From: Pseudomonadota bacterium
Lineage (GTDB): Bacteria > Pseudomonadota > Gammaproteobacteria > SURF-13
Length of the DNA stretch: 64,000 nt
Direction of reading: 5' to 3'
Assembly: GCA_041695325.1 (NCBI GenBank)
Contig: JBGFRC010000029.1
Coordinates: 4,526 to 68,525 of the forward strand
In this document: in pieces, positions 3,303-46,689 of the stretch
Layout: each line of letters opens with the position of its first letter
How positions within the stretch are numbered: position 1 is the stretch's first letter
The notes under the pieces: model-generated
The model's database searches: none
Seen by the model: the letters and a program-made list of their open reading frames with translations, nothing else
Told to the model about the DNA's origin: nothing
Program-made: the position numbers and the translations under genes

Positions 3303-3564
3303 TGTTGTGACTCCTTAAACTGGTTGCGATTGGGAAATCAATTTTTCGCTCTGAAACTGCGCTACTCTTCAACCTGTTCCCAATGATTAAATTCAAACCC
3401 ATACTAATGTATCCCCCGATCAAATACAATTGATTTATATCAAAATATAATCAACCGGCTGTAGACGTTTGTCAAATGATGATTGTCTTCGGAAATGCAC
3501 GTCCCCGCCTGCCGTATGGATGTCGGATTGATTGGATAAGCCATTGATTATTAGGTAAATACTC

Positions 3565-4656
3565 ATGTCTTTCCCGGAGCACGACCGTGTGCGCGCCGTC
3601 ACCTGGGATGACGGCGCGCTGCGGCTTCTGGATCAGCGCGCGCTGCCGCTGCGGGTGGAGTATCTCCACTGCAGCTCTGCCTCCGCGGTGGCGCGCGCCA
3701 TTCATGACATGGCGGTGCGCGGTGCGCCCGCCATCGGCATTGCGGCGGCCTATGGCGTGGTGCTTGCGGCCCGGGCGCGTTATGCCGCTGCGCCCGGCGC
3801 ATGGAAGCAGGACATCGAGGTGGATATCGCCTTATTGCTGGACTCGCGTCCTACGGCGGTGAACCTGCGCTGGGCGGTAGAGCGCATGCGCGGTCGTATT
3901 AATAGTCTCTTTTCCAACTCCCCCTCTCCCTCCGGGAGAGGGATGGGGAGAGGGGAGGGCAGCGACCCTGTACCTGCCCTTTTGTCTGAGGCGCGCGCCA
4001 TCCATGAGGAAGACATCGCCGCCAACCGGCGCATGGGCGAGCTGGGCGCGGCGCTGATCACTCCGGGGAGCGCGGTGCTTACGCACTGCAACACCGGTGC
4101 GCTCGCCACCGGCGGCTACGGCACGGCGCTGGGCGTGATCCGCGCCGCCTATGCGGGGGGCAAGATCACGCAAGTGTACGCCGGCGAGACGCGCCCCTGG
4201 CTGCAAGGCGCGCGCCTGACCGCCTGGGAGCTGGTGCAGGAGCGCATACCCGTCACTTTGATCGCCGATAGCGCCGCCGCCTATCTCATGGCGCAGGGCT
4301 GGGTGCGCTGGGTGATCGTGGGCGCGGACCGCATCGCCGGGAACGGCGATACCGCGAATAAAATCGGCACCTACAGCCTGGCGCTGGCGGCGCGCCGCCA
4401 CGGGGTGAAGTTCATGGTGGTGGCGCCGGTTGCCACGCTCGACAGCCGCCTCGCCAACGGGGCGGGAATACCGGTGGAGCAACGTGCCGCAGACGAGGTG
4501 CTGACCCTGAACGGCCAGATCGTGGCCGCGCCCGGCGCTTCCGCCTGGAATCCGGGCTTCGACATCACCCCGGCGGAACTGATAGACGCCTGGGTGAGCG
4601 AGCGCGGAGTGGTGCTCCAGCCCACGGCGGCGAAAATCCGCGCCCTGACGGGGTAG
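3565..4656 (+). CDS. mtnA: S-methyl-5-thioribose-1-phosphate isomerase
   Basis: [43 protein letters not shown] motifs. Confidence 0.95.
3918..3959. repeat. CCCTCTCCC...GGGAGAGGG palindromic element, in frame inside mtnA
   Basis: ctccccctctccctccgggagagggatggggagaggggaggg encodes [14 protein letters not shown]; related copies at 36026 and 38261. Confidence 0.8.
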
Positions 4657-8459: not shown

Positions 8460-9623
8460 ATGTTCAAGATTTTGACCCTGAATAATATTTCTGTTGTTGG
8501 TCTGGAGCGCCTGCCGCGCGACCAATACGAAATCGCCTCCGAGATACAGCACCCGGACGCCATCCTGTTGCGCTCCGCCGACATGCACAGGATGGAGCTG
8601 CCGGAAGGTCTCAAGGCCGTAGGGCGCGCGGGGGCCGGTGTGAACAACATTCCGGTGGAAAAGTTGGCCAAGCTGGGCGTGCCGGTGTTCAACGCGCCCG
8701 GCGCCAACGCCAACGCGGTGAAGGAGCTGGTGCTGGCGGGCATGCTGCTCGCCGCGCGCAACATCTGCCGGGCGTGGGACTTCGCGCGCAAGCTGGACGG
8801 CGACGACGCCACGCTCAACAAACTGGTCGAGGCGGGCAAAAAGGATTACGCCGGATTTGAATTGCAGCATCGCACCCTGGGCGTGATCGGCCTCGGCGCC
8901 ATCGGGCGCGAGGTGGCAAACAGCGCGCTTGCGCTCGGCATGAAGGTGGTCGGCTTTGACCCGGGCATCACCGTGCAGGGCGCGTGGAAACTGTCTTCCG
9001 AGGTGCAGCAGGCGGCGAGCGTGGACGATCTCGTGTCCAGGGTGGACTTTCTCACCCTGCACGTGCCGCTCGCCGACGCCACGCGTCATCTCATCAACGC
9101 GCAACGCCTGAAGCTGATGAAAAAGGGCGCGGTGCTGCTCAACTTCGCGCGCGAGGGCATCGTGGACGACCGGGCGCTGAAAGAGGCGCTCGACGCCGGC
9201 GGGATTCACGCCTACGTGTGCGATTTCCCGGTCACTATTTTTAAGAACCACGCGCGTGTCATCGCGCTGCCGCACCTCGGCGCCTCCACCAGCGAGGCGG
9301 AGGACAACTGCGCCATCATGGTGGTGGAACAGGTGCGCGATTTCCTGGAGAACGGCAACATCCGCAACTCGGTGAATTATCCCGAAGTGGTGATGCCGCG
9401 CACCGAAGGCTACCGCATCGGCATCGCCAACGCCAACGTGCCCAACATGGTGGGGCAAATCTCCACCGCCATGGCCAAGGCCAATCTCAACATCGTGGAC
9501 CTGCTCAACAAGTCGCGCGGCGATTACGCCTATACCCTGGCCGACGTGAACAAGCCGATCCCGGACGCGGTGGTAAAAGAGATTGCCGCCATCGTCGGCG
9601 TGTTGTCGGTGAGAACTCTCTAG
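8460..9623 (+). CDS. serA: D-3-phosphoglycerate dehydrogenase with C-terminal ACT domain
   Basis: RAGAGVNNI, GLGAIG, NFAR, PHLGAST; follows serC; ATG 8460 chosen as start. Confidence 0.9.
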   Translation: MFKILTLNNISVVGLERLPRDQYEIASEIQHPDAILLRSADMHRMELPEGLKAVGRAGAGVNNIPVEKLAKLGVPVFNAPGANANAVKELVLAGMLLAARNICRAWDFARKLDGDDATLNKLVEAGKKDYAGFELQHRTLGVIGLGAIGREVANSALALGMKVVGFDPGITVQGAWKLSSEVQQAASVDDLVSRVDFLTLHVPLADATRHLINAQRLKLMKKGAVLLNFAREGIVDDRALKEALDAGGIHAYVCDFPVTIFKNHARVIALPHLGASTSEAEDNCAIMVVEQVRDFLENGNIRNSVNYPEVVMPRTEGYRIGIANANVPNMVGQISTAMAKANLNIVDLLNKSRGDYAYTLADVNKPIPDAVVKEIAAIVGVLSVRTL

Positions 9624-9624
9624 G

Positions 9625-9727
9625 GCAGAGAAAAGAGACAAGAGAAAAGAGAAAAGGGAGTGCGCATAAGCGGTATGCGCCTGGGCATGATTTTTCTTTT
9701 CTCTTGCCTCTTTGCTCTTTTCTCTGC
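9625..9727. repeat. Inverted heptamer tandem-repeat hairpin between serA and pheA
   Basis: Left arm AGAGAAA-AGAGACA-AGAGAAA-AGAGAAA; right arm TTTCTCT-TGCCTCT-TTGCTCT-TTTCTCT; inner hairpin GCGCATA/TATGCGC. Confidence 0.85.
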
Positions 9728-9742
9728 GCTTAAATTTAAATT

Positions 9743-33749: not shown

Positions 33750-35429
33750 ATGAACCTGGTTCTGGATGCCGGTTGTTCGTCGCAACAGGGAAAGCGCAAG
33801 GCCAACGAAGACAGTTGCCTTGTCATCACGCCGAGCACCAGTCAATATCTCGACTACGGCGCGCTGTTCGCCGTGGCCGACGGCGTGGGCGGCATGGCGG
33901 GAGGGAAAGAGGCCGCCGAGTGCGCGATCCGCACCTTGCGTGACGAATATTACGCCGCTCCCGACACCCTGACCCTGGAGCACGCGCTCAAGGACTGCTT
34001 CGATGCGGCCAACCGCGCCGTGCTGGCCGAGCCGCCCGCGGGCCGGGCCACCACGCTCTCCGCCCTGGTGCTGCGCAACCGGCGCTGGGGCGTCGCCCAC
34101 GTGGGCGACACGCGCGTCTGGCTGTACCGCAACCAACGGCTCACGCAGCTCACTGTAGACCACAGCCGCCCCTACGCCCACATCGGCTCCATGATTACGC
34201 GCGCCTGTGGACTGGACGTGCAGCTTCACGCCGACGTGCAAAGCGGGGAGCTGCGGGAAGGCGACGTGTTTCTCATTACCAGCGACGGCGTGCATGAAAC
34301 GCTGGATGTTCAGACAATGACCGAGGCGCTTGGCCGGGAAAATCACAGCGCGCAGGACATTGCCGAAACTCTGGTGCTGCAAGCGCTCAAGGCGGGCAGC
34401 ATGGATAACGTCAGCGCGTGCCTGGCTCGTGTGGAAAAGCTTCCGCCCGAGACAGCTTCCGACATCGGTCTCAGCATCACTGCGTTGCCCATCCGTCCGT
34501 TGCCGAAACCGGGCGACACGGTGGACGGCTTTGTCATCGGCGAGCGCCTGCACAGCGGCCGCCTCTCCACCTTGTATGCCGCGATGGACGGCGAAACCGG
34601 TCAGCGCGTGGCCGTGAAATTTCCCAATCCCCGTTATGCCGATGACGCCGCGTTCGTGGATTATTTTCTGCGCGAGGAATGGCTGGGCCGGCGCCTGGAC
34701 AGCCCGCACGTGGTAAAGACCATCATGCTTACCCCGGGACGGCGCAGCGCGCTCTACATGGTGATGGTGTTGCACCACGGCGAAACCCTGGCCGCGCGCA
34801 TCAAAAGAAAAAGCGGCCTGTCCGTGCACGAAACGCTGTCACTCGCCCGGCAGATACTTACCGGACTCGATCACCTGCATCGCAAGGGCGTGATCCACCG
34901 CGACGTGAAACCGGAAAATATTCTGATAGACACCGAACACCGGGTGTGCCTGCTCGATCTCGGCGTAAGCCGCGTCGAGCGCATGGACGCGGGCAGCAAG
35001 TCGCTCACGCCCGTCGGCACGCCGAGCTACATCGCGCCCGAGGTGATGGCGGGCGTGGAGGCCGATGAGCGCGCCGACGTCTATTCCGCGGCGGTGACGA
35101 TATACGAAATGCTCACCGGAAAATATCCCTACGGTGAAATCGAACCCTTCACCCATCCCGCCTACAGCCGCTTCATCTCGCCTGAGCGCTACAACCCTGA
35201 GGTGCCGCCGTGGCTGTCCGAAATACTGCGTAAGGCCTGCTCCCCCGACCCCAACCAGCGCTACCCTCATGCCGCCGATCTCGCCGCGGCGCTTGCCGCC
35301 CCTCCGCAAAATATCCTTCCGCAGCGCAAAGCGCCTTTGCTTGAGCGCATCCGCCCTGAGCACTGGAAAGCGTTGTTTATCGTCTCCCTGCTGCTGAATT
35401 TACTGCTGCTGTTTGTTGTGCTCAAATAG
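33750..35429 (+). CDS. Bifunctional PP2C phosphatase / Hanks-type Ser/Thr kinase with C-terminal TM anchor
   Basis: PP2C motifs NED, ADGVGG, HVGD, SDG, DN; kinase motifs VAVK, HRDVKPEN, DLG, APE. Confidence 0.92.
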   Translation: MNLVLDAGCSSQQGKRKANEDSCLVITPSTSQYLDYGALFAVADGVGGMAGGKEAAECAIRTLRDEYYAAPDTLTLEHALKDCFDAANRAVLAEPPAGRATTLSALVLRNRRWGVAHVGDTRVWLYRNQRLTQLTVDHSRPYAHIGSMITRACGLDVQLHADVQSGELREGDVFLITSDGVHETLDVQTMTEALGRENHSAQDIAETLVLQALKAGSMDNVSACLARVEKLPPETASDIGLSITALPIRPLPKPGDTVDGFVIGERLHSGRLSTLYAAMDGETGQRVAVKFPNPRYADDAAFVDYFLREEWLGRRLDSPHVVKTIMLTPGRRSALYMVMVLHHGETLAARIKRKSGLSVHETLSLARQILTGLDHLHRKGVIHRDVKPENILIDTEHRVCLLDLGVSRVERMDAGSKSLTPVGTPSYIAPEVMAGVEADERADVYSAAVTIYEMLTGKYPYGEIEPFTHPAYSRFISPERYNPEVPPWLSEILRKACSPDPNQRYPHAADLAAALAAPPQNILPQRKAPLLERIRPEHWKALFIVSLLLNLLLLFVVLK

Positions 35430-35548
35430 CGGCGACTCCTTTTCAGGTGCAGTAGACTGGATTTAAGGAACGAAATCCCGCAATAACCGTTGCGCCGATT
35501 TCGCCCTGATGACAGGATTACGTTACAATCCTCACAATCAGGCCAAAA

Positions 35549-38494
35549 ATGACAAAAGAATCGGACGCCAGGGAGAATATAGACCGCCTCCTGAGGCAGG
35601 CGGGATGGTCGGTGTGCGATGCCGCGCGAGCCAATATTCATGCCGCGTGCGGCGTGGCCATCCGAGAGTTTCCCCTCAAACCTGGCCATGGGTTCGCCGA
35701 TTATCTGCTCTATGTGAATGGCAAGGCGGCCGGAGTGATCGAAGCCAAGCCCGAGGGCGCCACGCTCACTGGCGTCGAAATCCAATCCGCCAAGTATTCC
35801 ACCGGACTGCCCGAAAACCTCCCCGCCTGGGGCTGGCCGTTGCCGTTTGCTTACCAATCCACCGGCGTCGAAACCCGCTTCACCAACGGCCTCGATCCCG
35901 CGCCACGCTCACATGCGGTTTTTGCTTTTCATAAGCCGGAGACTCTCGCAGAACTATTAAATGTAGCCTGGGTTGAGCGTAGCGAAACCCAGGGCAAAGT
36001 CGCGGAAGCGACACCGGCATACAATCTCCCTTTCCCGCAAGCGGGAGAGGGCTGGGGTGAGGGTGCTACCTTCCTCGCCCGCCTGCAACACCTGCCGGCA
36101 CTCAAGACCGAAGGCCTGTGGCCCGCCCAGATCAAAGCCATCCAGAACCTCGAACAATCACTCAAGGAAAACCGCCCGCGCGCCTTGATCCAGATGGCCA
36201 CGGGATCGGGCAAGACCTTCACGGCCATCAGTTTCATCTACCGGCTGCTCAAGTTCGCCGGTGCCCGGCGCATTCTGTTCCTGGTGGACCGCGGCAACCT
36301 CGGCGACCAGACGCTCAAGGAATTCCAGCAGTACACCTCGCCCTACAACAACTTCAAGTTCACCGAGGAGTACATCGTCCAGCGCCTGACGAGCAACACG
36401 CTCGACACCACCGCCCGCGTCTGCATCTCGACCATCCAGCGCATGTACTCGATGCTGAAGGGCCGGGAGCTGGCGGAAGACCTGGAAGAAGTGTCTATGG
36501 ATCAGCTCGGCAGCCTATTCGGAGGGAGCGGGCAACGCAGGGCGTCGCCAGACAAGGCGCGAGGCGAGCGAGCAGCGGAGTTGACAGCCAAGTCAATGAG
36601 CAGCGGAGCGACCCGAGCAACGCTGTATGGCGGCGACCTGCTAAGCCCGACCGAGTCTATCGAATACAATCCGGCAATCCCGATCGAGAGCTTCGATGTC
36701 ATCGTCACCGACGAATGCCACCGCTCGATCTACAACCTCTGGGCGCAGGTGCTGGAGTACTTCGACGCCTATCTGATCGGCCTCACCGCCACGCCCAGCA
36801 AGCAGACCTTCGGCTTCTTCCACCAGAACCTGGTGATGGAATACAACCACGAAATGGCCGTGGCCGACGGCGTCAACGTCAACTACGACGTCTACCGCAT
36901 CCGCACCGCCATCAGCGAGGCCGGCTCCAAGGTGGAGGCGGGCTACTACGTGGAGAAGCGCGAGCGCGAGACGCGCAAGACCCGCTGGGAGGAGCTGGAG
37001 GACGACTTCGCCTACGACCCGAGCCAGCTCGACCGCGAGGTGGTCACGCCGGACCAGATTCGCACCGTCGTCAAGACCTTCAAGGACAAGCTCTTCGGCG
37101 AAATCTTCCCCGGCCGCACCGAGGTGCCGAAGACCCTCGTCTTCGCCAAGGACGACAACCACGCCGAGAACATCGTCGAAATCCTGCGCGAGGAATTCGC
37201 CAAGGGCAACGAATTCGCCCAGAAGATCACCTACCGCACCACCGGCGACACGCCGCAGAACCTCATCAAGTCGTTTCGCAACAGCTACCACCCACGCATC
37301 GCAGTCACCGTGGACATGATCGCCACCGGCACCGACATCAAGCCGGTGGAAATCGTCATGTTCATGCGCGCGGTCAAGTCGCGCTCGTTCTTCGAGCAGA
37401 TGAAGGGCCGCGGCGTGCGCGTCATCAAGGACGACGACCTCAGGGCCGTTACCCCGGACGCCAAGGCCAAGGACCACTTCGTCATCGTGGACGCCGTCGG
37501 CGTCTGCGAGCAGGACAAGACCGATGCCCGGCCGATGGAGAAGAAGCCGAGCGTCTCGTTCGCCGACCTGCTCAAGGCCGTGAGCTTCGGCAACACCGAG
37601 GACGACGTGCTCACCTCCGTCGCCGGGCGCCTGGCGCGCATGGAGCACCGCCTGAGCTCCGAGGACGACAGGAAAATCCGTCAGGCGAGCGGGGGCCTGA
37701 GCCTGAAAGACCTGAGCCACCGGCTGGTCGAGGCGCTGAACCCGGACAGCGCCAGCCACACCGCGCGGCTCGACGCCGTCAAGCCCCTGCACGACCCGGC
37801 CCTGCGCAACCTGCTGGTCGAGATCAAGCAACGAAACGAGATCACCATAGACCACGTCAGCCAGGACAAGGTCATCGAGGCCGGCTTCAGCCAGGCGGCC
37901 CTCGACCGCGCCAAGGGGCTGGTGCAGTCGTTCGAGAAATTCATCCGGGACCACAAGGACGAAATCACCGCCCTGCAAGTGCTCTACGCCAAGCCATACA
38001 AACAGCGCCTGACCTTCGAGGCCGTGAAGGAACTCGCCGACGCCATCGAACGGCCGCCCAACCTCTGGAACGAATCGCAGCTCTGGAACGCCTACGCCGC
38101 GCTGGAAAAATCCAAAGTCAAAGGCGCCAGCGGCAAACGCATCCTCACCGATCTCGTCTCCCTCGTGCGCTTCGCCATCCACCAGGACAACGAACTCATC
38201 CCGTTCCCCGAGCGCGTCAACGCCAACTTCAAAGCCTGGCTCGCCACCCAACAACGGGGCCTCCCCTCTCCCACCAGTGGGAGAGGGGAAGGGGGAGAGG
38301 GCCGCTTCACCCCTGAACAAATGAAATGGCTCGAAATGATCCGCGACCACATCGCCGCCAACCTCAGCATCGCGCCGGACGATTTCGAGTACGCGCCGTT
38401 CTCGCAACATGGCGGACTCGGCAAAGTGCATCAGCTATTCGGTGATAAGCTGACTGCGATCATTGAAGAATTGAACGAGACCTTGGCAGCATGA
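35549..38494 (+). CDS. hsdR: Type I restriction endonuclease subunit R
   Basis: ADY...IEAK nuclease motif, MATGSGKT, DECH, LTATP, QMKGRG; clustered with hsdS and hsdM. Confidence 0.93.
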   Translation: MTKESDARENIDRLLRQAGWSVCDAARANIHAACGVAIREFPLKPGHGFADYLLYVNGKAAGVIEAKPEGATLTGVEIQSAKYSTGLPENLPAWGWPLPFAYQSTGVETRFTNGLDPAPRSHAVFAFHKPETLAELLNVAWVERSETQGKVAEATPAYNLPFPQAGEGWGEGATFLARLQHLPALKTEGLWPAQIKAIQNLEQSLKENRPRALIQMATGSGKTFTAISFIYRLLKFAGARRILFLVDRGNLGDQTLKEFQQYTSPYNNFKFTEEYIVQRLTSNTLDTTARVCISTIQRMYSMLKGRELAEDLEEVSMDQLGSLFGGSGQRRASPDKARGERAAELTAKSMSSGATRATLYGGDLLSPTESIEYNPAIPIESFDVIVTDECHRSIYNLWAQVLEYFDAYLIGLTATPSKQTFGFFHQNLVMEYNHEMAVADGVNVNYDVYRIRTAISEAGSKVEAGYYVEKRERETRKTRWEELEDDFAYDPSQLDREVVTPDQIRTVVKTFKDKLFGEIFPGRTEVPKTLVFAKDDNHAENIVEILREEFAKGNEFAQKITYRTTGDTPQNLIKSFRNSYHPRIAVTVDMIATGTDIKPVEIVMFMRAVKSRSFFEQMKGRGVRVIKDDDLRAVTPDAKAKDHFVIVDAVGVCEQDKTDARPMEKKPSVSFADLLKAVSFGNTEDDVLTSVAGRLARMEHRLSSEDDRKIRQASGGLSLKDLSHRLVEALNPDSASHTARLDAVKPLHDPALRNLLVEIKQRNEITIDHVSQDKVIEAGFSQAALDRAKGLVQSFEKFIRDHKDEITALQVLYAKPYKQRLTFEAVKELADAIERPPNLWNESQLWNAYAALEKSKVKGASGKRILTDLVSLVRFAIHQDNELIPFPERVNANFKAWLATQQRGLPSPTSGRGEGGEGRFTPEQMKWLEMIRDHIAANLSIAPDDFEYAPFSQHGGLGKVHQLFGDKLTAIIEELNETLAA
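35963..35993. repeat. GTAG-type REP palindrome, in frame inside hsdR
   Basis: GTAG-CCTGGGTT-GAGCGTAGCGA-AACCCAGG (8-bp perfect stem), encoding VAWVERSETQG. Confidence 0.75.
36026..36063. repeat. CCCTCTCCC-type palindromic element, in frame inside hsdR
   Basis: ctccctttcccgcaagcgggagagggctggggtgaggg encodes LPFPQAGEGWGEG. Confidence 0.78.
36519..36654. repeat. About 135-bp nested-hairpin element, in frame inside hsdR
   Basis: Nested IRs tcgg/ccga, gggc/gccc, gcagg/cctgc, gtcgcc/ggcgac, ttgac/gtcaa; core AGACAAGGCGC...GCAACGC shared with the element at 1109-1221; boundaries approximate. Confidence 0.7.
38261..38301. repeat. CCCTCTCCC-type palindromic element, in frame inside hsdR
   Basis: ctcccctctcccaccagtgggagaggggaagggggagaggg encodes LPSPTSGRGEGGEG. 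Confidence 0.8.
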
Positions 38495-39513
38495 TCCAGA
38501 GCAACCCCCAACCCGGCGGCGAAGTTCTCCTGTACCAGACCCAGGATGGTAAAACTCGACTGGAGGTTCAGTTTCAGGGTGAAACGGTCTGGCTGACCCA
38601 AAAACAGATGGCCGACCTGTTCCAGAAGGACGTACGCACCGTCAGCGAGCATATCCGCAATGTCTATGAGGAGGGCGAGCTGGCCCCGGATCCAACTCTC
38701 CGGAATTTCCGGATAGTTCAAACCGAAGGCAAACGGCAGGTGGAGCGCGACGTCGCCCACTACAATCTCGACGTCATCATTTCCGTGGGTTACCGCGTCA
38801 AGTCGCAACGCGGCACCCAATTCCGCATTTGGGCCACCCGCACGCTCCGGGACCATCTGGTCCAGGGCTACACCCTCAACGAACGCCGCCTGCGGGAAAA
38901 GGGCCTGGCCGAAATGGAGCAGGCCGTGCGCCTGCTGGCGCGCACGCTCTCCACCCACGAGCTGGTCAACGACCAGGGCCGGGCGGTGCTGGACGTGGTC
39001 ACGCGCTACGCCCGCTCCTGGCGCTTGCTGTTGCAGTACGACGAGAACCGCCTGCCCGAATCACCTGCGCATCCGACCCGTCCCGTCGCCGGCCTGTCAC
39101 CGGACATCAGCCGCCAAGCCATTTCGGGACTCAAGCAGGCCTTGATGGAGAAGGGCGAGGCCACGGCTCTCTTCGGGCAGGAACGCGGCGGCGCGCTCGA
39201 CGGCATTCTGGGTTCCATCGAACAGACCTTCGGCGGCGAAGCGCTCTACCCGAGTGTCGAAGCCCGCGCCGCGCATTTGCTCTACTTCGTCATCAAGGAT
39301 CACCCGTTCGCCGACGGCAACAAGCGCATCGGTAGCTTTCTGTTCCTGCTGTACCTAGACCGCAATGGCCTGCTGAATAAGCCCGACGGCACACCACGCT
39401 TCGCCGACAATGCCCTGGTCGCCGTCGCCCTGCTGGTCGCCGAAAGCGACCCCGCGCACAAAGAACTGCTGATCCGGTTGATCCTGAACCTGCTACAGGA
39501 TGGCGGTGAATGA
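38491..39513 (+). CDS. RhuM-family / Fic-Doc fusion protein
   Basis: ETVWLTQKQMADLF, YNLDVIISVGYRV.S..GTQFR.WA (RhuM-like); HPFADGNKR (Doc-type Fic motif). Confidence 0.88.
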   Translation: MIQSNPQPGGEVLLYQTQDGKTRLEVQFQGETVWLTQKQMADLFQKDVRTVSEHIRNVYEEGELAPDPTLRNFRIVQTEGKRQVERDVAHYNLDVIISVGYRVKSQRGTQFRIWATRTLRDHLVQGYTLNERRLREKGLAEMEQAVRLLARTLSTHELVNDQGRAVLDVVTRYARSWRLLLQYDENRLPESPAHPTRPVAGLSPDISRQAISGLKQALMEKGEATALFGQERGGALDGILGSIEQTFGGEALYPSVEARAAHLLYFVIKDHPFADGNKRIGSFLFLLYLDRNGLLNKPDGTPRFADNALVAVALLVAESDPAHKELLIRLILNLLQDGGE

Positions 39514-39515
39514 CC

Positions 39516-39584
39516 ATGTACCAGGATTCCGGAGACAAGCTGAACGCGATGATTGAAGAATTGAACGAGACGTTAGCGACATGA
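39516..39584 (+). other. Diverged duplicate of the hsdR 3' end forming a 22-codon mini-ORF
   Basis: MYQDSGDKLNAMIEELNETLAT* versus hsdR VHQLFGDKLTAIIEELNETLAA*; 45/54 nt identity between 39531-39584 and 38441-38494. Confidence 0.8.
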
Positions 39585-41020
39585 GCGCAACTCTTCCAAC
39601 AAATTGGGAATTCAAGCCGCTTCGTGAATTGCTTGTCTCCCTTGAATCAGGAAGCCGCCCGAAGGGCGGCGTGAAAGGCATTGAATCCGGGGTACCTAGC
39701 CTGGGTGGAGAACATCTCGATTCGAACGGCGGCTTCAAGTTCGAGAAGATTAAATTCGTACCCGAAATATTTGCGCAAAAGATGATGCGCGGAAGAATTC
39801 AGCGCGGAGACATCCTTGTCGTCAAGGACGGTGCAACCACTGGAAAGACTTCATTCGTCGGGTCGTCATTTCCCTACCAAGATGCCGTCATTAATGAGCA
39901 CGTCTTCTTGTGTCGATGCCGCGAGGGCATCGACCCAAAGTACGTTTTCTATTTTCTCTATTCTGCCGAAGGAAATCGTCAGATTCTCGAAGACTTTAGA
40001 GGTGCAGCCCAAGGAGGCATTAGCCAACGGTTCGCGGAAATCGTTAATGTGCCGCTCGCGCCCCTCAACCAGCAAAAACGCATCGTCGCGGAAATCGAAA
40101 AACAGTTCTCCCGCCTCGACGAAGCCGTCGCCAACCTCAAGCGCGTTAAGGCCAATCTCAAGCGCTACAAAGCAGCCGTCCTCAAAGCCGCCGTCGAAGG
40201 CCGCCTAGTCGAAACCGAAGCCGAACTCGCCCGCCGCGAGGGCCGCAGCTACGAAACCGGCGAACAACTCCTGCAACGCATCCTCGAAACCCGCCGCAGC
40301 CAGTGGAAAGGCAAGGGCAAATACAAAGAACCCGCCGCGCCCGACACCACCGACCTGCCCGAGTTACCGGAGGGATGGGTGTGGGCGACAGTTGAATCGT
40401 TGTCAGTGAAGGTCACCGACGGTGTTCACAAAAAGCCGAGCTACGTCGCCGAGGGTATTCCGTTTGTAACGGTGAAGAATTTGACGGCAGGAGATGGCAT
40501 TTCATTCGATGACCTCAACTACGTGACTCCAAAAGATCACGAGGAGTTCTGCAAACGAACCCATCCGGAGCGCGGTGACATCCTGATCACAAAGGATGGA
40601 ACCCTTGGCGTGGTGCGATTGATTGATACGGACCGACCATTCAGCGTGTTTGTGTCGGTGGCGCTCGTAAAGCCAGTTGTGTATGATTTTAGTCGGTACC
40701 TAGTGACAGCGTTTGAGTCGCCAGTCGTACAGCGGCAGATGGTTCCGAAAGGCTCAGGACTACAGCATATTCATCTTGAAGACCTACGCGCAGACTGCAT
40801 TCCTGTTCCACCACTCGCAGAACAAAATCGCATCGTCGTTGAAGTTGATCGACGATTCTCGATCATTCGCGAAGTCGAGACAGACGTTGACGCCAATCTC
40901 ATGCGTGCGCAGGTGCTACGCCAATCCGTCCTTTCCGGCGCCTTCAATAGGAAATTGCTAATGGCATCTAACAATACACCAGGCAACATGCACATGGAGG
41001 TAGCAGCCAATGCCATCTAA
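39581..41020 (+). CDS. hsdS: Type I R-M specificity subunit
   Basis: LP..W start, two TRDs each ending in P..PL..Q..IV, central PELPEGWVW spacer. Confidence 0.92.
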   Translation: MSATLPTNWEFKPLRELLVSLESGSRPKGGVKGIESGVPSLGGEHLDSNGGFKFEKIKFVPEIFAQKMMRGRIQRGDILVVKDGATTGKTSFVGSSFPYQDAVINEHVFLCRCREGIDPKYVFYFLYSAEGNRQILEDFRGAAQGGISQRFAEIVNVPLAPLNQQKRIVAEIEKQFSRLDEAVANLKRVKANLKRYKAAVLKAAVEGRLVETEAELARREGRSYETGEQLLQRILETRRSQWKGKGKYKEPAAPDTTDLPELPEGWVWATVESLSVKVTDGVHKKPSYVAEGIPFVTVKNLTAGDGISFDDLNYVTPKDHEEFCKRTHPERGDILITKDGTLGVVRLIDTDRPFSVFVSVALVKPVVYDFSRYLVTAFESPVVQRQMVPKGSGLQHIHLEDLRADCIPVPPLAEQNRIVVEVDRRFSIIREVETDVDANLMRAQVLRQSVLSGAFNRKLLMASNNTPGNMHMEVAANAI

Positions 41021-43115
41021 ATATCCTAAAGGGTCAGAATGGCGCAGATGGGATCTACACATCCATACGCCTGCATCCACGTTACACAACGAGTTTAATG
41101 GATGGGAATCATATCTTGACGCTATCGAGGCGGCTGATCCTGCAATATGCGCTGTAGGAATTACAGACTATGCGTCACTGGATGGCTACAAGCGCATCAG
41201 GAATGAAATCGACGCAAAGAGCCGTCTCGCAAATATTTCGCTTGTTTTACCGAACATAGAATTTCGAGTTTCTCCTTTTACCAAACAAGGGTCCGCGATC
41301 AATCTGCACGTTCTCGTTGACCCAAGAGAAGCAGATCACATTCAGCGAATTGAGGACGCCCTTAATCGGCTCACATTCACATATCAGGGCCAAAAGTACC
41401 CTTGCAATCAAGCCGGTCTGAGAGATCTAGGAAAGGCTTTTGATGGATCTATAAAGGATGGCGATGCGGCTTATCGTGAGGGTGTTAAACAATTCAAGCC
41501 AGATTTTGAGGTGTTCCGGGAGTGGTACGACAGCGAGAAATGGTTGAAACGTAATTCCCTCATTGTCGTCTCAAATAGCAGTAATGACGGGGCTTCCGGG
41601 CTGAAGCATGACGACGGCTATAAGGCAAAAAGGCAGGAGATATACCGCTTCAGCAACGCGGTTTTCTCGGGCAATCCAAAGGATCGTGAATATTTCTGCG
41701 GCAAAGGGCCAGACAGCGAAGAGCAGCTAGCCCAAACAGTCAATGGGCGTAAGCCGTGTGTCCATGGCTCGGACGCTCACAAGGAAGAGAGGCTTTTTAG
41801 GCCTGACGAAGAAAGGTTTTGCTGGATAAAAGCTGACCCAACCTTTGAAGGCCTTCGTCAGATCCTTTATGAGCCGGAAGCACGTGTGCATATCGGCAAA
41901 ACCTATCCAGAAGCGCGAGACGAAAACCGGATCATCAGTTCAGTACGGTTCATAGGAACGAATGGATGGTTTCATGACATTGAACTTCCAATCAATCCGG
42001 CATTGGTAAATATCATCGGTAGTAAAGGTTCCGGCAAGACAGCTTTGGTTGACCTTGTTGCATATGCAACTGGGTCGTGGACCAGCAACACTAATTCCTT
42101 TCTATACAAGGCACACAGGGAACTCGAAGGTTCTGAAGTAGTAGTCACATGGTCTGGGGGCGGAAAAGACGCTGTCGTGGTTCCCAAACGTCTCGAAGAT
42201 GGACGTGATCAGAAGGTTAGGTATCTTTCTCAGCAATTCGTCGAGCATCTGTGCTCAGAAGATAAGGTGGGCACAGAATTGGTTCATGAGATTGAGCAAG
42301 TCATCTTCGAGTATTTAGACGATACAGAAAAGCTTGGAGAAACCAGTTTTTCTGGTCTTCGTATCGCCAAAACAGGGAGTGTGCGAAATCAGCAAGTACG
42401 ACTTCGGTCATCTATTGCGAAACTGAATCAAGATATCGATGAGTTACGGCTGGAGATCGACTCGCGACATCAAAAAGCTGAGCGTGTGGCGGAGCTAGAA
42501 AACGAACGTAAGGGTCTTGAGAAGCAAAAGCCTGCCTTCGACTCCGAGGAAGAACAAAAGATTGAGGATGAGTTGTCAGTGTTGCGCGACACACGACAGA
42601 AATTGGTAGACAAGATCAGTGCCCAGAAGCAGCAGTTAGAACGCATTGCCGAGGTCCGGGATCGAGTCGCTTCATTCGAAGACGACATGAAGGGATTCTT
42701 TAATGAGTTAATGGCTGAACTAAGAGATTTGGGTGTCGAAAGAGAGGAGCTTGAGAACTTCCACCCCTCATTCCGCGGTGATGTGCGAAAACCGCTGGAC
42801 AAAAAGGAGAAACAAATACGAACTGAGATTGACACGGAAACCGGTTCTGACGGTGATAAGTACCCTGACAAGGGAACGTTGTGTGCTGTTGATCACCGAA
42901 TTGGTGAGCTGGAGAAGTTGTCTTTCGTCGATCAAGCGAAGAAACAACGAAACATTGAGATTCAGAAGCGAGTGGCTGCTATCGATGCCGAAATCGCAAA
43001 GCTGCGTAAGGCGATCAAATCAATCGATTCAACAAGGAAGACAGAGCTTGCCACCAAGATTGAAGAGCGTTGGGACAAATACCTCTGGACTTCCCCCGAA
43101 TTCATGGACACCGGC

Positions 43116-43979
43116 TCAAGCAACTTGATTCATCGCCTCGAACTCGGCCGGTGAACGGTAGCCGAGGGTCGAATGACGACGTTGCCGATTGTAGAACACT
43201 TCGATGTATTCAAAGATATCCTGTTTCGCTTCTTCCCGCGTGAGATAGCGCCGGTCGTGGATCAGCTCCTTCTTGAGCGTGCCGAAGAAGCTCTCCACGC
43301 AGGCATTGTCCCAGCAGTTGCCCTTGCGGCTCATCGAACACGTGAGGCCGGCGTGGGTGAGCAGGTCCTGGTAATCCTGGCTCGCGTACTGCACGCCGCG
43401 ATCCGAGTGATGCAGCAACCCCTTGGCCGGTTTCCGGCGCCACAGCGCCATGGTGAGCGCCGTTGCGGCGAGATCGGCGGTGAGGCGCGATCCCATTGCC
43501 CAGCCGATGACCCGGCGGGAGAAAAGATCGAGCACGACCGCCAGATACAGCCAACCCTCGGCGGTTGCCACGCAGGTGATGTCGCCGGCCCAGACGCGGT
43601 TGGGCGCCGTCACGGTGAATTGCCGAGCGAGCGTGTTGCCGGCCACGGGCAGCTGGTGCGCGGCGTCGGTAGTCGCTTTCCACTTCTTCACCGTCTTGGC
43701 GCGAATGCCGTGGGCCCGCATCAGCCGCGCCACCCGGTTCTCGCCGACCCGGCGGCCGCGTTTCCTCAGCACATCGCAGATGCTGGGGCTGCCGTAGGTG
43801 CGCCGGCTCTCGGCGTGGAGCGCGCGAATCTCCCCCAGCAGCGCCCGGTTGGCCCGTGCACGACGGCTCTCGGGCCGGGTAGCCCAGGCGTAGTAGCCGG
43901 CGGGCGAGACCTCAAGCGCGCGGCACATGAGCCGGACGGAGAAACGGCAAGCGTGGTCCTGGATGGCCCGGTATCTCAT
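43116..43979 (-). CDS. IS3 transposase OrfB (DDE integrase core)
   Basis: WAGDIT, HHSDRGVQY, GNCWDNA..ESFFGTLKKE. Confidence 0.95.
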   Translation of the reverse strand: MRYRAIQDHACRFSVRLMCRALEVSPAGYYAWATRPESRRARANRALLGEIRALHAESRRTYGSPSICDVLRKRGRRVGENRVARLMRAHGIRAKTVKKWKATTDAAHQLPVAGNTLARQFTVTAPNRVWAGDITCVATAEGWLYLAVVLDLFSRRVIGWAMGSRLTADLAATALTMALWRRKPAKGLLHHSDRGVQYASQDYQDLLTHAGLTCSMSRKGNCWDNACVESFFGTLKKELIHDRRYLTREEAKQDIFEYIEVFYNRQRRHSTLGYRSPAEFEAMNQVA

Positions 43980-44272
43980 TTGCGTTCCCTCGCGAAGTAC
44001 GCCGCCGCAGATTTTAAAAAATCGCGTTCCTTCCTCACCGTGTCGAGCTCCCGGCGCAGCCGGACCAGCTCCTCGCGCTCGGCCCGAAGCGCGGAATGCG
44101 TCGTTCCCAGGCCCTTCGCCTCGTGCTCCTCGGTCCGCCAGCGGTACAGCAGGTTGTCCGCGATCCCGAGCTCCCGGGCCACCTCCGCCACGGGCTTGCC
44201 GGTCTCCTGCACCAGGCGCACGGCTTCGGTCTTGAACTCCTCGGTATACTTACGTCGTTTGGCTTCTGACAT
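43976..44272 (-). CDS. IS3 transposase OrfA (HTH)
   Basis: RRKYTEEFK.EAV, VARELGI, ERDFLK; ATGA overlap with OrfB. Confidence 0.92.
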   Translation of the reverse strand: MSEAKRRKYTEEFKTEAVRLVQETGKPVAEVARELGIADNLLYRWRTEEHEAKGLGTTHSALRAEREELVRLRRELDTVRKERDFLKSAAAYFARERK

Positions 44273-45198
44273 GGTTTCCTCCGATTTCGGTATTGTCCAC
44301 CTTAGGGAGGTGTCCACGAAATCGGGGGAGGTTCACTCAGCTACTTTGACAACCTCAAGAACGAACAAGAAATCCTAGAGTCCCTTTATCGGTCGCTGGG
44401 ACACGCCTTGGGGGCTGGATCAAAAGAAGAGCAGAGGTTGGAGTTCTACATAAAATGGCGCGCAGACATTGACGGGTGGGCAAATGCTGGCGAGGCGTTG
44501 TTGGATAAAAGAAAGCAGGGACCATATCGTGCATTCGGAGAGCTTGCCAGCAAAGCTAGGGAATTCCTAGAAGGACCTTGGATAAATGGCGACAAAGAGG
44601 GCATTCGTAAGAGTCTGGAGGAAATGCGCGCAACGTATGACCACGTAGACGGTGAATACAGCCTTCAGTCCCAACTATTGAGTAGCGTTACAAGAGCCAA
44701 ATTCGATGACTGGCTCTTTAGTACGGAGCACATATCACTCAGTTATGGAATTCGATATGACGGCGTCGAACTTGAAAATCTCTCGCCAGGCACGAAAGGT
44801 ATTGTGTTGCTGATCCTGTATCTGGAGATGGATAAGAACGACCGCAGGCCATTGCTTATCGACCAACCAGAAGAGAATCTGGATAACGAATCGGTCTACA
44901 AGGTGCTTACTGGATACTTCCGGAAGGCGAAGCAGAGAAGACAGATCATTTTGATAACGCATAATCCGAATCTGGTCGTCAATACCGATTCTGAGCAGGT
45001 TATCGTGGCATCGTATCTCAAGTCACCACCGCTGGGTGACGTGAGAATCAAATATTCTCTGGGTTCGCTAGAAGACACCAGACTTGATCCGACAGGGCTG
45101 GATGTTGGAACACGAGAAAAGGTTTGCGAAATACTAGAAGGCGGAGAACGCGCATTTCATATGCGCGAGAAGAAGTACGCCTTTGATAGAAGATAGAA

Positions 45199-46689
45199 AT
45201 GAATACTTCGACAATCGTCCAAAAACTCTGGAACTACTGCAACGTCCTGCGCGACGATGGCATGTCGTACGGCGACTACGTCGAACAGCTTACCTACTTG
45301 CTGTTCCTCAAGATGGCCGACGAGCGCACCAAGGCGCCATACAGCCAGAAGAGCCCGGTGCCAGAGAAGTACAGTTGGCCGAGCCTCATCAAGAAAGACG
45401 GCGACGAGCTGTTCGATCACTACCGCCACACCCTGGAGGCGCTGGGCAACCAGAAGGGCCTGCTCGGGCTGATCTTCAACAAGTCGCAGAACAAGTTTCA
45501 GGACCCGGCCAAGCTGCGGCGGCTGGTGGTTGACCTCATCGACAAGGAGGAATGGGTGTCGATGAGCGCCGACGTGAAGGGCGATGCCTACGAAGGTCTG
45601 CTGGAGAAGAACGCCCAGGACACCAAGTCCGGCGCCGGCCAGTATTTCACCCCGCGCCCGCTGATCCAGGCGATTGTGGATGTCATGGCCCCGAAGCCCG
45701 GCGAGACCGTGAGCGACCCGGCCTGCGGCACCGGCGGTTTTCTGCTCGCGGCGCACGACTACGTGGTGAAGCACAATCCAAACCTGACCAAGCCGCAAAA
45801 GACCAAACTCAAGGAGGAAACCTTCAAGGGCTGGGAGCTGGTGCAGGCCACGGCGCGGCTGTGCGCCATGAACATGCTGCTGCACGGCATCGGCAGCCAG
45901 GACTTCGAGCCCATCGTGGTGGCCGACTCGCTGGCCGCCGATCCCGGCGACCGCTTTGACCTGGTGCTTACCAATCCGCCCTTCGGCAAGAAGAGCAGCA
46001 CAACGATTGTTGGTGAAGAAGGGAAGGTGAGCAAAGAGCGCGACATCGTCGAGCGCGGCGACTTCTGGACCACCACCTCGAACAAACAGCTCAACTTCGT
46101 CCAGCACGTCAAAACCCTGCTCAGGCAAAACGGCCGCGCCGCCGTGGTCGTGCCCGACAACGTGCTGTTCGAAGGCGGCGCCGGCGAAACCATCCGGCGC
46201 AAGCTGCTGCACGAGTGCGACGTCCACACCCTGCTGCGCCTGCCCACCGGCCTGTTCTATGCCCAGGGCGTGAAGGCGAACGTGCTGTTCTTCGACAAGA
46301 AACCCGCCAGCGAAACCCCGTGGACCAGGAAGCTCTGGATCTATGACCTGCGCACCAACATGCACTTCACGCTCAAGACCGACCCCTTGAAGCGCGAAGA
46401 CCTGGATGAATTCGTGAAGTGCTACAACCCCGAGAACCGCCATCTGCGCAAGGCCACCTGGTCCGAGAAGAAGCCCGAAGGCCGCTGGCGTGCCTACAGC
46501 TACGACGAACTCATCAACCGCGACAAGGCCAGTCTCGACATCTTCTGGCTCAAGGATGAATCGCTATCCGAGTCCGAAAACCTCCCGGCCCCGGACGTGC
46601 TGGCGCAGGAGATCGTTGACGACCTGGAGGCGGCGTTGAACCAATTCCGGGAGATTGTTACAGATCTGACTGAAGGTGGCGCAAGGTAA
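45199..46689 (+). CDS. hsdM: Type I R-M N6-adenine methyltransferase subunit
   Basis: GQYFTPR, DPACGTGGFL (motif I), NPPF (motif IV). Confidence 0.95.
   Translation: MNTSTIVQKLWNYCNVLRDDGMSYGDYVEQLTYLLFLKMADERTKAPYSQKSPVPEKYSWPSLIKKDGDELFDHYRHTLEALGNQKGLLGLIFNKSQNKFQDPAKLRRLVVDLIDKEEWVSMSADVKGDAYEGLLEKNAQDTKSGAGQYFTPRPLIQAIVDVMAPKPGETVSDPACGTGGFLLAAHDYVVKHNPNLTKPQKTKLKEETFKGWELVQATARLCAMNMLLHGIGSQDFEPIVVADSLAADPGDRFDLVLTNPPFGKKSSTTIVGEEGKVSKERDIVERGDFWTTTSNKQLNFVQHVKTLLRQNGRAAVVVPDNVLFEGGAGETIRRKLLHECDVHTLLRLPTGLFYAQGVKANVLFFDKKPASETPWTRKLWIYDLRTNMHFTLKTDPLKREDLDEFVKCYNPENRHLRKATWSEKKPEGRWRAYSYDELINRDKASLDIFWLKDESLSESENLPAPDVLAQEIVDDLEAALNQFREIVTDLTEGGAR

Follow-up and report, generated by a model that had tools for sequence, protein, structure and literature searches.

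Within a 64,000-nucleotide stretch of gammaproteobacterial DNA (contig JBGFRC010000029.1 of assembly GCA_041695325.1, lineage SURF-13; hereafter the window), hsdR, the gene for the restriction subunit of a type I restriction-modification (R-M) system, contains four palindromic segments that keep its reading frame open. Sequence comparison makes it very probable that these segments are selfish hairpin elements and ends of cassettes, caught where a functional and horizontally mobile type I restriction subunit has permissive loops. Each would be a solo copy of small hairpin-forming mobile DNA that landed in a disordered surface loop or linker, where it may be read through as a loop rich in Pro, Gly, Ser and Glu. 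The gene and its inserts are listed below in window coordinates.

35549..38494, + strand: hsdR, an intact 981-residue type I restriction subunit of the EcoEI/EcoAI family, with Pfam domains HSDR_N, ResIII, Helicase_C and EcoEI_R_C
35963..35995, + strand: insert 1, a GTAG-tagged repetitive extragenic palindromic (REP) monomer, read as VAWVERSETQG (residues 139-149), recognized by its 8-bp perfect arms and its fold
36026..36064, + strand: insert 2, a BoxC/PIT/TM_ECO-type triplex-motif (TM) unit whose left arm is degenerate, read as LPFPQAGEGWGEG (residues 160-172), recognized by loose contig ends and its layout
36519..36654, + strand: insert 3, a nested palindrome resembling a MITE (a miniature transposable element with inverted repeats), recognized by its fold and by empty alleles
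38261..38302, + strand: insert 4, a canonical BoxC/PIT/TM unit, read as LPSPTSGRGEGGEG (residues 905-918), recognized by a 13-bp perfect hairpin and a third arm

Checks of the sequence, its open reading frames (ORFs) and its domains confirmed the central observation of a preliminary description of the window, namely that four palindromic segments lie at these positions within an intact 981-residue frame whose motifs are preserved; all four are in frame and stop-free. The protein has the features expected of the EcoEI/EcoAI family, with an N-terminal PD-(D/E)xK nuclease, a superfamily 2 (SF2) motor with Walker A and a DEAH box, and the C-terminal domain of the family, and its locus includes hsdS and hsdM with extra genes between. 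It matches every invariant or near-invariant alignment column that we identified (D51, E65-A-K67, G219-S-G-K-T223, D388-E389-H391 and Q617...R621), so that the nuclease residues (D51, E65, K67), Walker A (219-223), the DECH motif (388-391) and motif VI all fall in conserved columns.

We aligned 120 HsdR homologues of 71-82% identity, with lengths of 900-1171 residues and a base length of about 916-926. The preliminary description had predicted alignment gaps at the four insert sites, and the homologue nearest in the core tree (P0004, 91% identity over 845 core columns) is indeed empty at all four. The inserts share the hallmarks of Rickettsia palindromic elements (RPEs), which Ogata et al. are said to have described: a repeat copy lies inside an ORF, keeps the frame, is absent from orthologues and sits in a surface loop. 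An AlphaFold2 model built from a 73-row diverse alignment had a predicted local distance difference test score (pLDDT) of 87.7 and a predicted TM-score (pTM) of 0.84; a first model, built on 43 close homologues, reached a pLDDT of 47.9 and was unusable. The only segments with pLDDT below 50 are residues 153-167, 326-365, 910-912 and 914-916. The second of these is taken up by insert 3 (pLDDT 30-36); insert 2 overlaps the first, and insert 4 overlaps the last two, in a loop between helices 886-903 and 922-938 (pLDDT 57-65). Insert 1 is modelled as an extension of helix 130-149, with a block mean pLDDT of 69. The best structural matches to the model in the PDB are 3h1t and the EcoR124I HsdR structures; in a PDB sequence search, 3h1t aligned to the motor alone and did not cover the insert sites. 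An intein or intron was considered and rejected, as the inserts are only 11-41 residues long and contain no Pfam domain or Rfam match.

Five positions of HsdR vary across the 120 homologues: those in the linker, slots 3 and 4, and a fifth slot, at residue 733, which the window protein leaves empty. These slots hold peptides of at least seven repeat families, the labels of which come from regular expressions and are approximate ('WVE' in WVEAASRR, for example, is a false REP label). The linker was classed as empty in 62 proteins, slot 3 in 92, slot 4 in 43 and slot 5 in 44. The suggestion in the preliminary description that this gene is a hotspot for such elements is borne out by a comparison with GyrA: TM peptides occur in 62/120 HsdR homologues and in 0/120 GyrA homologues of similar identity, none of which contains any of the seven peptide patterns, and rare inserts number 112 (in 58 proteins) in HsdR versus 2 in GyrA.

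Slot content turns over quickly. The 16 carriers of insert 3 require 11 changes on a FastTree phylogeny of the core columns, whereas shuffled labels require a mean of 15.2 and a minimum of 12. A single insertion followed by recombination of a large tract found no support as an account of this distribution, as local trees around slot 3 did not cluster the carriers (12-13 changes in four regions). Sister rows of the alignment (P0013/P0089 and P0027/P0051) differ in slot content, and HsdR from a genome of the same genus (G003:C13, L210) differs from the window protein at four of the five slots. The same-genus hsdR adjoins an RND-type transporter gene, whereas the window hsdR adjoins a phosphatase/kinase gene, and the locus therefore lies at different chromosomal places in the two genomes. 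This agrees with the earlier proposal that the elements spread with a mobile R-M locus, as does the finding that inserts 1 and 3 are orphans in the source genome (a 57-contig bin of 1.79 Mb, 98% complete, with four type I systems); these two inserts most likely arrived with the gene. The preliminary description had also placed relatives of all three repeat families elsewhere in the window, which was not confirmed: only the CCCTCTCCC type recurs (at 3922-3955), and for inserts 1 and 3, each single-copy genome-wide, there were only matches of chance size.

At slot 4, filled alleles of different families have a flanking haplotype in common, although the first arm does not always start equally far from the flank, and in two loci (L162 and L163) TM units are split by insertions nested in the hairpin loop, within coding sequence. 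These three observations fit a permissive trap loop combined with recombination among alleles, and a precise homing site fits the pattern less well. Recurrence in the same five slots across the family would be best accounted for by three factors acting jointly. A strong survivorship filter would operate because few loops accept extra residues, such that stop-free, hydrophilic readings alone would survive; insertion that seeks hairpins, next to or into resident ones, would cause an occupied slot to trap further elements; and hsdR alleles would often be transferred horizontally and recombine.

Inserts 2 and 4 have the class II layout of about 34-41 nt, consisting of a pyrimidine arm, a loop, a purine arm, a short loop and a second purine arm. 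The listing for BoxC/PIT/TM_ECO in Table 1 of PMC4666352 gives this same arrangement, with arms nearly identical to those found here. By sequence layout, inserts 2 and 4 are members of this triplex-motif family; triplex formation itself is putative. Insert 4 contains a perfect 13-bp hairpin (38262-38289) with a third purine arm reaching 38301, and its DNA fold has a z-score of -3.33; loose contig ends fall at 38260/62 and 38298/301, and foreign contigs match the unit alone. Insert 2 likewise comprises a hairpin and a third purine arm (36026-36063), with loose ends at 36026/28 and 36063 and excess depth contributed by contigs of other organisms. It was recognized as a repeat unit because these foreign contigs match exactly 36026/36028-36063 and then diverge from the window.

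The family is dispersed and multi-copy. A pattern search, which insert 2 escaped, found 31 TM hairpins in the genome, mostly between genes. Nine of the 31 are enclosed within ORFs, between Pfam domains (one in HsdR, four in the HsdM of a second type I system, two in Gmd, one in PolA and one in an MtnA-like protein), and two more lie near N-termini and may precede the true start. The MtnA-like case is within the window:

3922..3955, + strand: in-frame TM unit inside an IF-2B/MtnA-family gene (3559-4653), found as a regular-expression match (C26:8447) within a spanning ORF that has coding-type GC content at third codon positions and a Pfam IF-2B match over residues 53-352

We then examined what might mobilize these units. 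The genome contains one DUF559 gene, which lies between mfd and def:

C32:48169-48480: DUF559 gene encoding 118 residues, bracketed by inverted TM units

Its start codon directly follows a hairpin and third arm, and its last codons enter a mirror-image unit; the TM hairpin cluster around it spans C32:48137-48742 (L179, about 1350-2100). To generalize, we surveyed the best 16 of 37 DUF559 matches, from 10 genomes, setting aside weaker or fragmentary rows and the unpublished genome G058. Arm motifs lie within 110 nt of 13 of these 16 best genes, and on both sides of 9; of the three genes without the motif, two have a co-varying variant of the same layout. At the same loci, arm-motif density was 13.9 per kb near the DUF559 gene versus 0.10 per kb farther off. 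In this genome and its relatives, TM units are the inverted termini of what appear to be small cassettes for DUF559, a Vsr-like nuclease. We therefore infer that inserts 2 and 4 either are what remains of cassette ends or are non-autonomous copies that a DUF559 nuclease moved in trans. In E. coli K-12, the end of the DUF559 gene ycjD lies inside a degenerate triplex-motif hairpin (NC_000913.3 1351040-1351840; L209), and downstream of it are a partial duplicate of the ycjD 3' end and then, about 170 nt downstream, a canonical TM_ECO unit.

The modification subunit of a second type I system in this genome provides a link between these cassettes and R-M genes. This HsdM (C14:2-1546; L001, P0121) contains four TM hairpins at three slots, and its homologues, of 508-807 residues, have three slots in common with it. 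At two of the slots that hold solo TM units here, homologues carry an in-frame DUF559 domain (P0244, P0266, P0268 and P0342 at one; P0295 and P0331 at the other), and two proteins carry a GIY-YIG domain at another HsdM slot. An in-frame domain resembling RAYT (REP-associated tyrosine transposase) was also found in HsdR itself, at slot 5, in 4/120 homologues and 3/160 loci, with its own repeat peptides on both sides; this domain scores 45.6 bits against NCBIfam REP_Tyr_transpos, below the cut-off of 80.

Insert 1 begins with GTAG, followed by arms CCTGGGTT and AACCCAGG at 35967-35974 and 35986-35993. The tag and the 8-bp arms identify it as a REP of the GTAG type, an imperfect palindrome of 20-40 nt tagged with GTAG at one end. 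Its RNA fold has an energy of -16.8 kcal/mol (z -3.25), its DNA fold a z-score of -3.17, and only one of its forward frames is stop-free. GTAG-type REPs are the class mobilized by RAYT transposases. The 98%-complete genome contains neither a second copy of insert 1, as would be usual for a REP, nor a match to the RAYT family PF01797, and without a partner insert 1 appears to be an imported relic. Members of its family, oriented and read as here, occupy slot 5 in five further HsdR loci, a different slot from that in the window, and in HsdR of the same-genus genome G003 the corresponding linker position holds another GTAG palindrome. That slot-1 palindrome retains a GAGCGCAGCGA core with different arms. 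Matches in the window to the 12-nt sequence GAGCGTAGCGAA were rejected as relatives of insert 1, as they are part of another repeat with about 20 copies. This separate repeat of about 45 nt occurs at about 20 places in the genome (e.g., C15:42556, C36:41193 and C3:3398) and has the GAGCGTAGCGAA core in common with the insert 1 loop but different stems.

Insert 3 represents a net gain of 41 residues or 123 nt (36521-36643, residues 325-365) and folds at -63.3 kcal/mol (z -2.5). Alleles with nothing in slot 3 have the sequence LF|K(E/Q)P|EPIEYNP; those that are filled are 40-41 residues longer. The empty allele is also present in contigs from two of the four runs compared, where 36486 is joined to 36651 with 41 other letters between. 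The insert is found at the same place in the same-genus genome and in seven other independent loci. Among the 38 pairs predicted from eight HsdR-borne DNA copies, 6 show compensatory changes, and the core is more conserved than neighbouring codons. Of 61 related genomes, 12 have relatives of the insert at sites outside HsdR, and the inverted ends of some of these relatives are long. Insert 3 fits a MITE in structure and size, and it is multi-copy in related genomes but single-copy in this 98%-complete one. No target duplication or transposase was identified for it, and an Rfam scan of 35000-39000 assigned it to no family, the sole match being sX13 at chance level. On these sequence features, insert 3 is a putative MITE, with relatives bearing long inverted ends in sister genera. 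Its end motifs may resemble those of the Neisseria Correia element.

Three lines of evidence, the third-position bias of hsdR, the reading bias of TM units and a linked substitution at residue 315, argue that the gene is under purifying selection and the inserts are translated. Differences between the window hsdR and the same-genus copy number 75, 55 and 175 at codon positions 1, 2 and 3. TM units were read as PSP-type peptides in 117 cases and as PLP-type in 22, versus a single match to the hydrophobic, Trp-containing 'LS..WER' reading. Residue 315 (window 36491), Val in the window protein, is hydrophobic in 27/28 slot-3 carriers, which include two repeat families, versus 8/92 proteins with an empty slot, 82/92 of which have Glu; about 12 of 14 independent pairs change in the same direction (p about 5e-4).

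Several observations weigh against trapped selfish elements as we have described them. Shuffled sequences fold about as well as insert 2 (z -1.07). A tblastn search with the DUF559 protein of this genome found the domain in 0/160 HsdR loci, and the derivation of inserts 2 and 4 from cassettes therefore draws on HsdM. PolA, Gmd and the MtnA-like gene hold in-frame TM units, so restriction genes are not the sole hosts. GyrA is a single and highly constrained control; the phylogeny comes from FastTree only; and the 120 homologues were ranked by similarity to an insert-bearing query, which may inflate the scatter of carriers. The shared flanking haplotypes at slots 3 and 4 mean that recurrence may partly represent one old open-slot allele spread by recombination. 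Finally, the RNA-library contig that spans insert 3 belongs to a relative (about 90% alike, depth 4) and may be DNA carry-over.

Active homing is the strongest competitor, although we consider it unlikely. Nuclease-bearing hairpin cassettes (DUF559/TM, RAYT/REP or GIY-YIG) would reside in frame in R-M genes and copy themselves into empty alleles at fixed sites once transfer brings alleles together, and the window inserts would be scars left by deletion of the nuclease ORF. The nuclease domains in HsdM slots speak for this, two of those slots being the ones with solo TM units here. The RAYT-like domain and its repeat peptides likewise occupy one identical slot in both deep HsdR clades, with 4 changes for 4 carriers, and the proteins that bear it also hold solo copies of the same repeat at slot 4. 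However, slot-4 TM junctions differ between lineages, insert 3 has no known nuclease, and DUF559 is absent from the HsdR loci searched. The RAYT-like inserts, moreover, are 61-76% identical between clades, whereas their host cores are 84-87% identical, and they therefore give no sign of recent spread. The suggestion in the preliminary description that the inserts may mark nuclease insertion sites is partly supported: such domains do sit in HsdM slots, but none of the 160 HsdR loci has DUF559, and the RAYT-like domain sits at a slot that is empty in the window protein.

A benefit to the host is less probable still. Variable surface loops or mRNA hairpins could help HsdR to escape phage anti-restriction proteins or proteolytic control, or could adjust translation rate. 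The fast turnover of slots between near-identical genes, the independent recurrence of the linked residue-315 substitution, and the compensatory changes and core conservation of insert 3 would all suit such a role, but many homologues, the closest included, have no insert, the same units occur in unrelated housekeeping genes and mostly between genes, and conservation of a hairpin is expected of any young mobile palindrome. Neutral decay, in which a dead or dying hsdR tolerates inserts since it no longer matters, is very improbable: restriction genes are often lost or disrupted (a stop precedes the end of the match in 12 of 80 genome loci) and this 1.79-Mb genome has four type I systems, yet the 981-codon frame and every conserved motif are intact, differences from the same-genus copy are biased to third codon positions, and the inserts are in frame and stop-free with biased readings. 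Mis-joining of hairpin repeats during assembly of the metagenome bin can be almost entirely discounted. The genome is a bin of 57 contigs, and the best run (X1) has no contig over 36572-36655; against this, one X1 contig is identical over 35900-36319, which includes inserts 1 and 2, insert 3 recurs at its position in the same-genus genome and the seven other loci noted above, and insert-4-type units occupy slot 4 in many independent assemblies.

Trapping of selfish hairpins in permissive HsdR loops can be extended to a broader proposal, which we regard as possible though leaning to the doubtful side. Type I R-M genes may be a preferred habitat and vehicle of hairpin-bounded nuclease cassettes (with DUF559 and BoxC-triplex ends, RAYT-like domains and REP ends, or GIY-YIG), which would persist unspliced and in frame at a few fixed loops, exchange with or replace one another, and shed solo hairpins; the E. 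coli BoxC/PIT repeat, long an orphan, would then be the non-autonomous form of a DUF559 (YcjD-type) element.

The preliminary description had singled out these inserts as a candidate undescribed phenomenon, which overstates their novelty, as in-frame palindromic insertions, both RPEs and intragenic REPs, have been published (PMC3733652). In that paper (Di Nocera, De Gregorio & Rocco 2013), small palindromes of both kinds, the RPEs and the intragenic GTAG/CGTC REPs, sit within real genes without shifting the frame. They add 10-80 residues to the product, frequently come as dimers or clusters, fall in linkers or loops according to the authors, and are common in enzymes that handle DNA, repair genes included. 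Its main text does not contain the word 'restriction', and its supplementary list of intragenic REPs could include restriction genes. HsdR differs from those cases in combining three unrelated families in one gene, five recurrent slots and rapid turnover, and some HsdR and HsdM homologues hold a whole transposase or nuclease domain in a slot. In-frame palindromic insertion is thus of a known kind, whereas no published account seems to exist of the restriction-gene slots or of the DUF559 link: within the partial texts covered by our literature search, no paper was found on restriction-gene slots, an in-frame RAYT in hsdR or a DUF559-BoxC link.

The individual families also depart from their known counterparts. 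According to PMC4666352 (Holder et al. 2015), the triplex motif in E. coli K-12 is always intergenic, with no mobility genes nearby; inserts 2 and 4 share its arm-loop layout and near-identical arms, but units here are translated inside genes and flank DUF559 nuclease genes, and ycjD abuts two units. Insert 1 resembles REPIN/REP-RAYT systems (REPtrons) in its GTAG tag and short imperfect palindrome, as do homologues in which a RAYT-like Y1 domain is flanked by its own palindromes. It differs in that the genome has no RAYT or second copy, and the RAYT-like domain of homologues lies in frame inside hsdR and falls below the NCBIfam cut-off. Insert 3 resembles MITEs in its length of about 120-135 nt, its nested inverted repeats without an ORF of its own and its multi-copy relatives with long inverted ends in sister genera; it differs in being single-copy here, in having no defined target duplication and in occupying one position among HsdR-borne copies.

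In-frame palindromic insertions are usually seen as rare curiosities of a few genomes, and here they are the rule in one defence gene family. The slots mark, in natural proteins, the places at which HsdR and HsdM accept additional peptide, and they provide a system for studying how hairpin elements choose their targets. DUF559 (YcjD in E. coli) becomes a testable candidate enzyme for BoxC/PIT/TM_ECO, a repeat that has posed the question of its origin and mobility since the 1990s. For annotation, length variation in R-M proteins should be read with the warning that it is largely repeat-derived.

The remaining genes of the locus lie downstream of hsdR:

38491..39513, + strand: RhuM/Fic-domain gene (Pfam), between hsdR and hsdS, overlapping the hsdR stop codon
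39581..41020, + strand: hsdS, with Pfam domain Methylase_S
45199..46689, + strand: hsdM of the HsdR locus, with Pfam domains N6_Mtase and HsdM_N

Five ORFs (38491-45196) separate hsdR from hsdM, namely the RhuM/Fic gene, hsdS, and genes for an AAA_23 protein of 714 residues, an unassigned 401-residue product and an AAA_21/SMC_N protein. The census by regular expression found no TM hairpin in this hsdM. In several homologous loci (L093, L094, L097, L104-L107, L110, L114, L117, L118, L120, L123, L126, L135, L140, L141, L144, L151 and L161), the terminal 35-115 codons of hsdR are repeated once or twice, 400-1300 nt downstream of the complete gene, as though genes inserted there had either carried in a new 3' end or left the former one in place. 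Elsewhere in the window, positions 9622-9730 hold a long polypurine/polypyrimidine inverted repeat with 35-nt arms that are 86% complementary.

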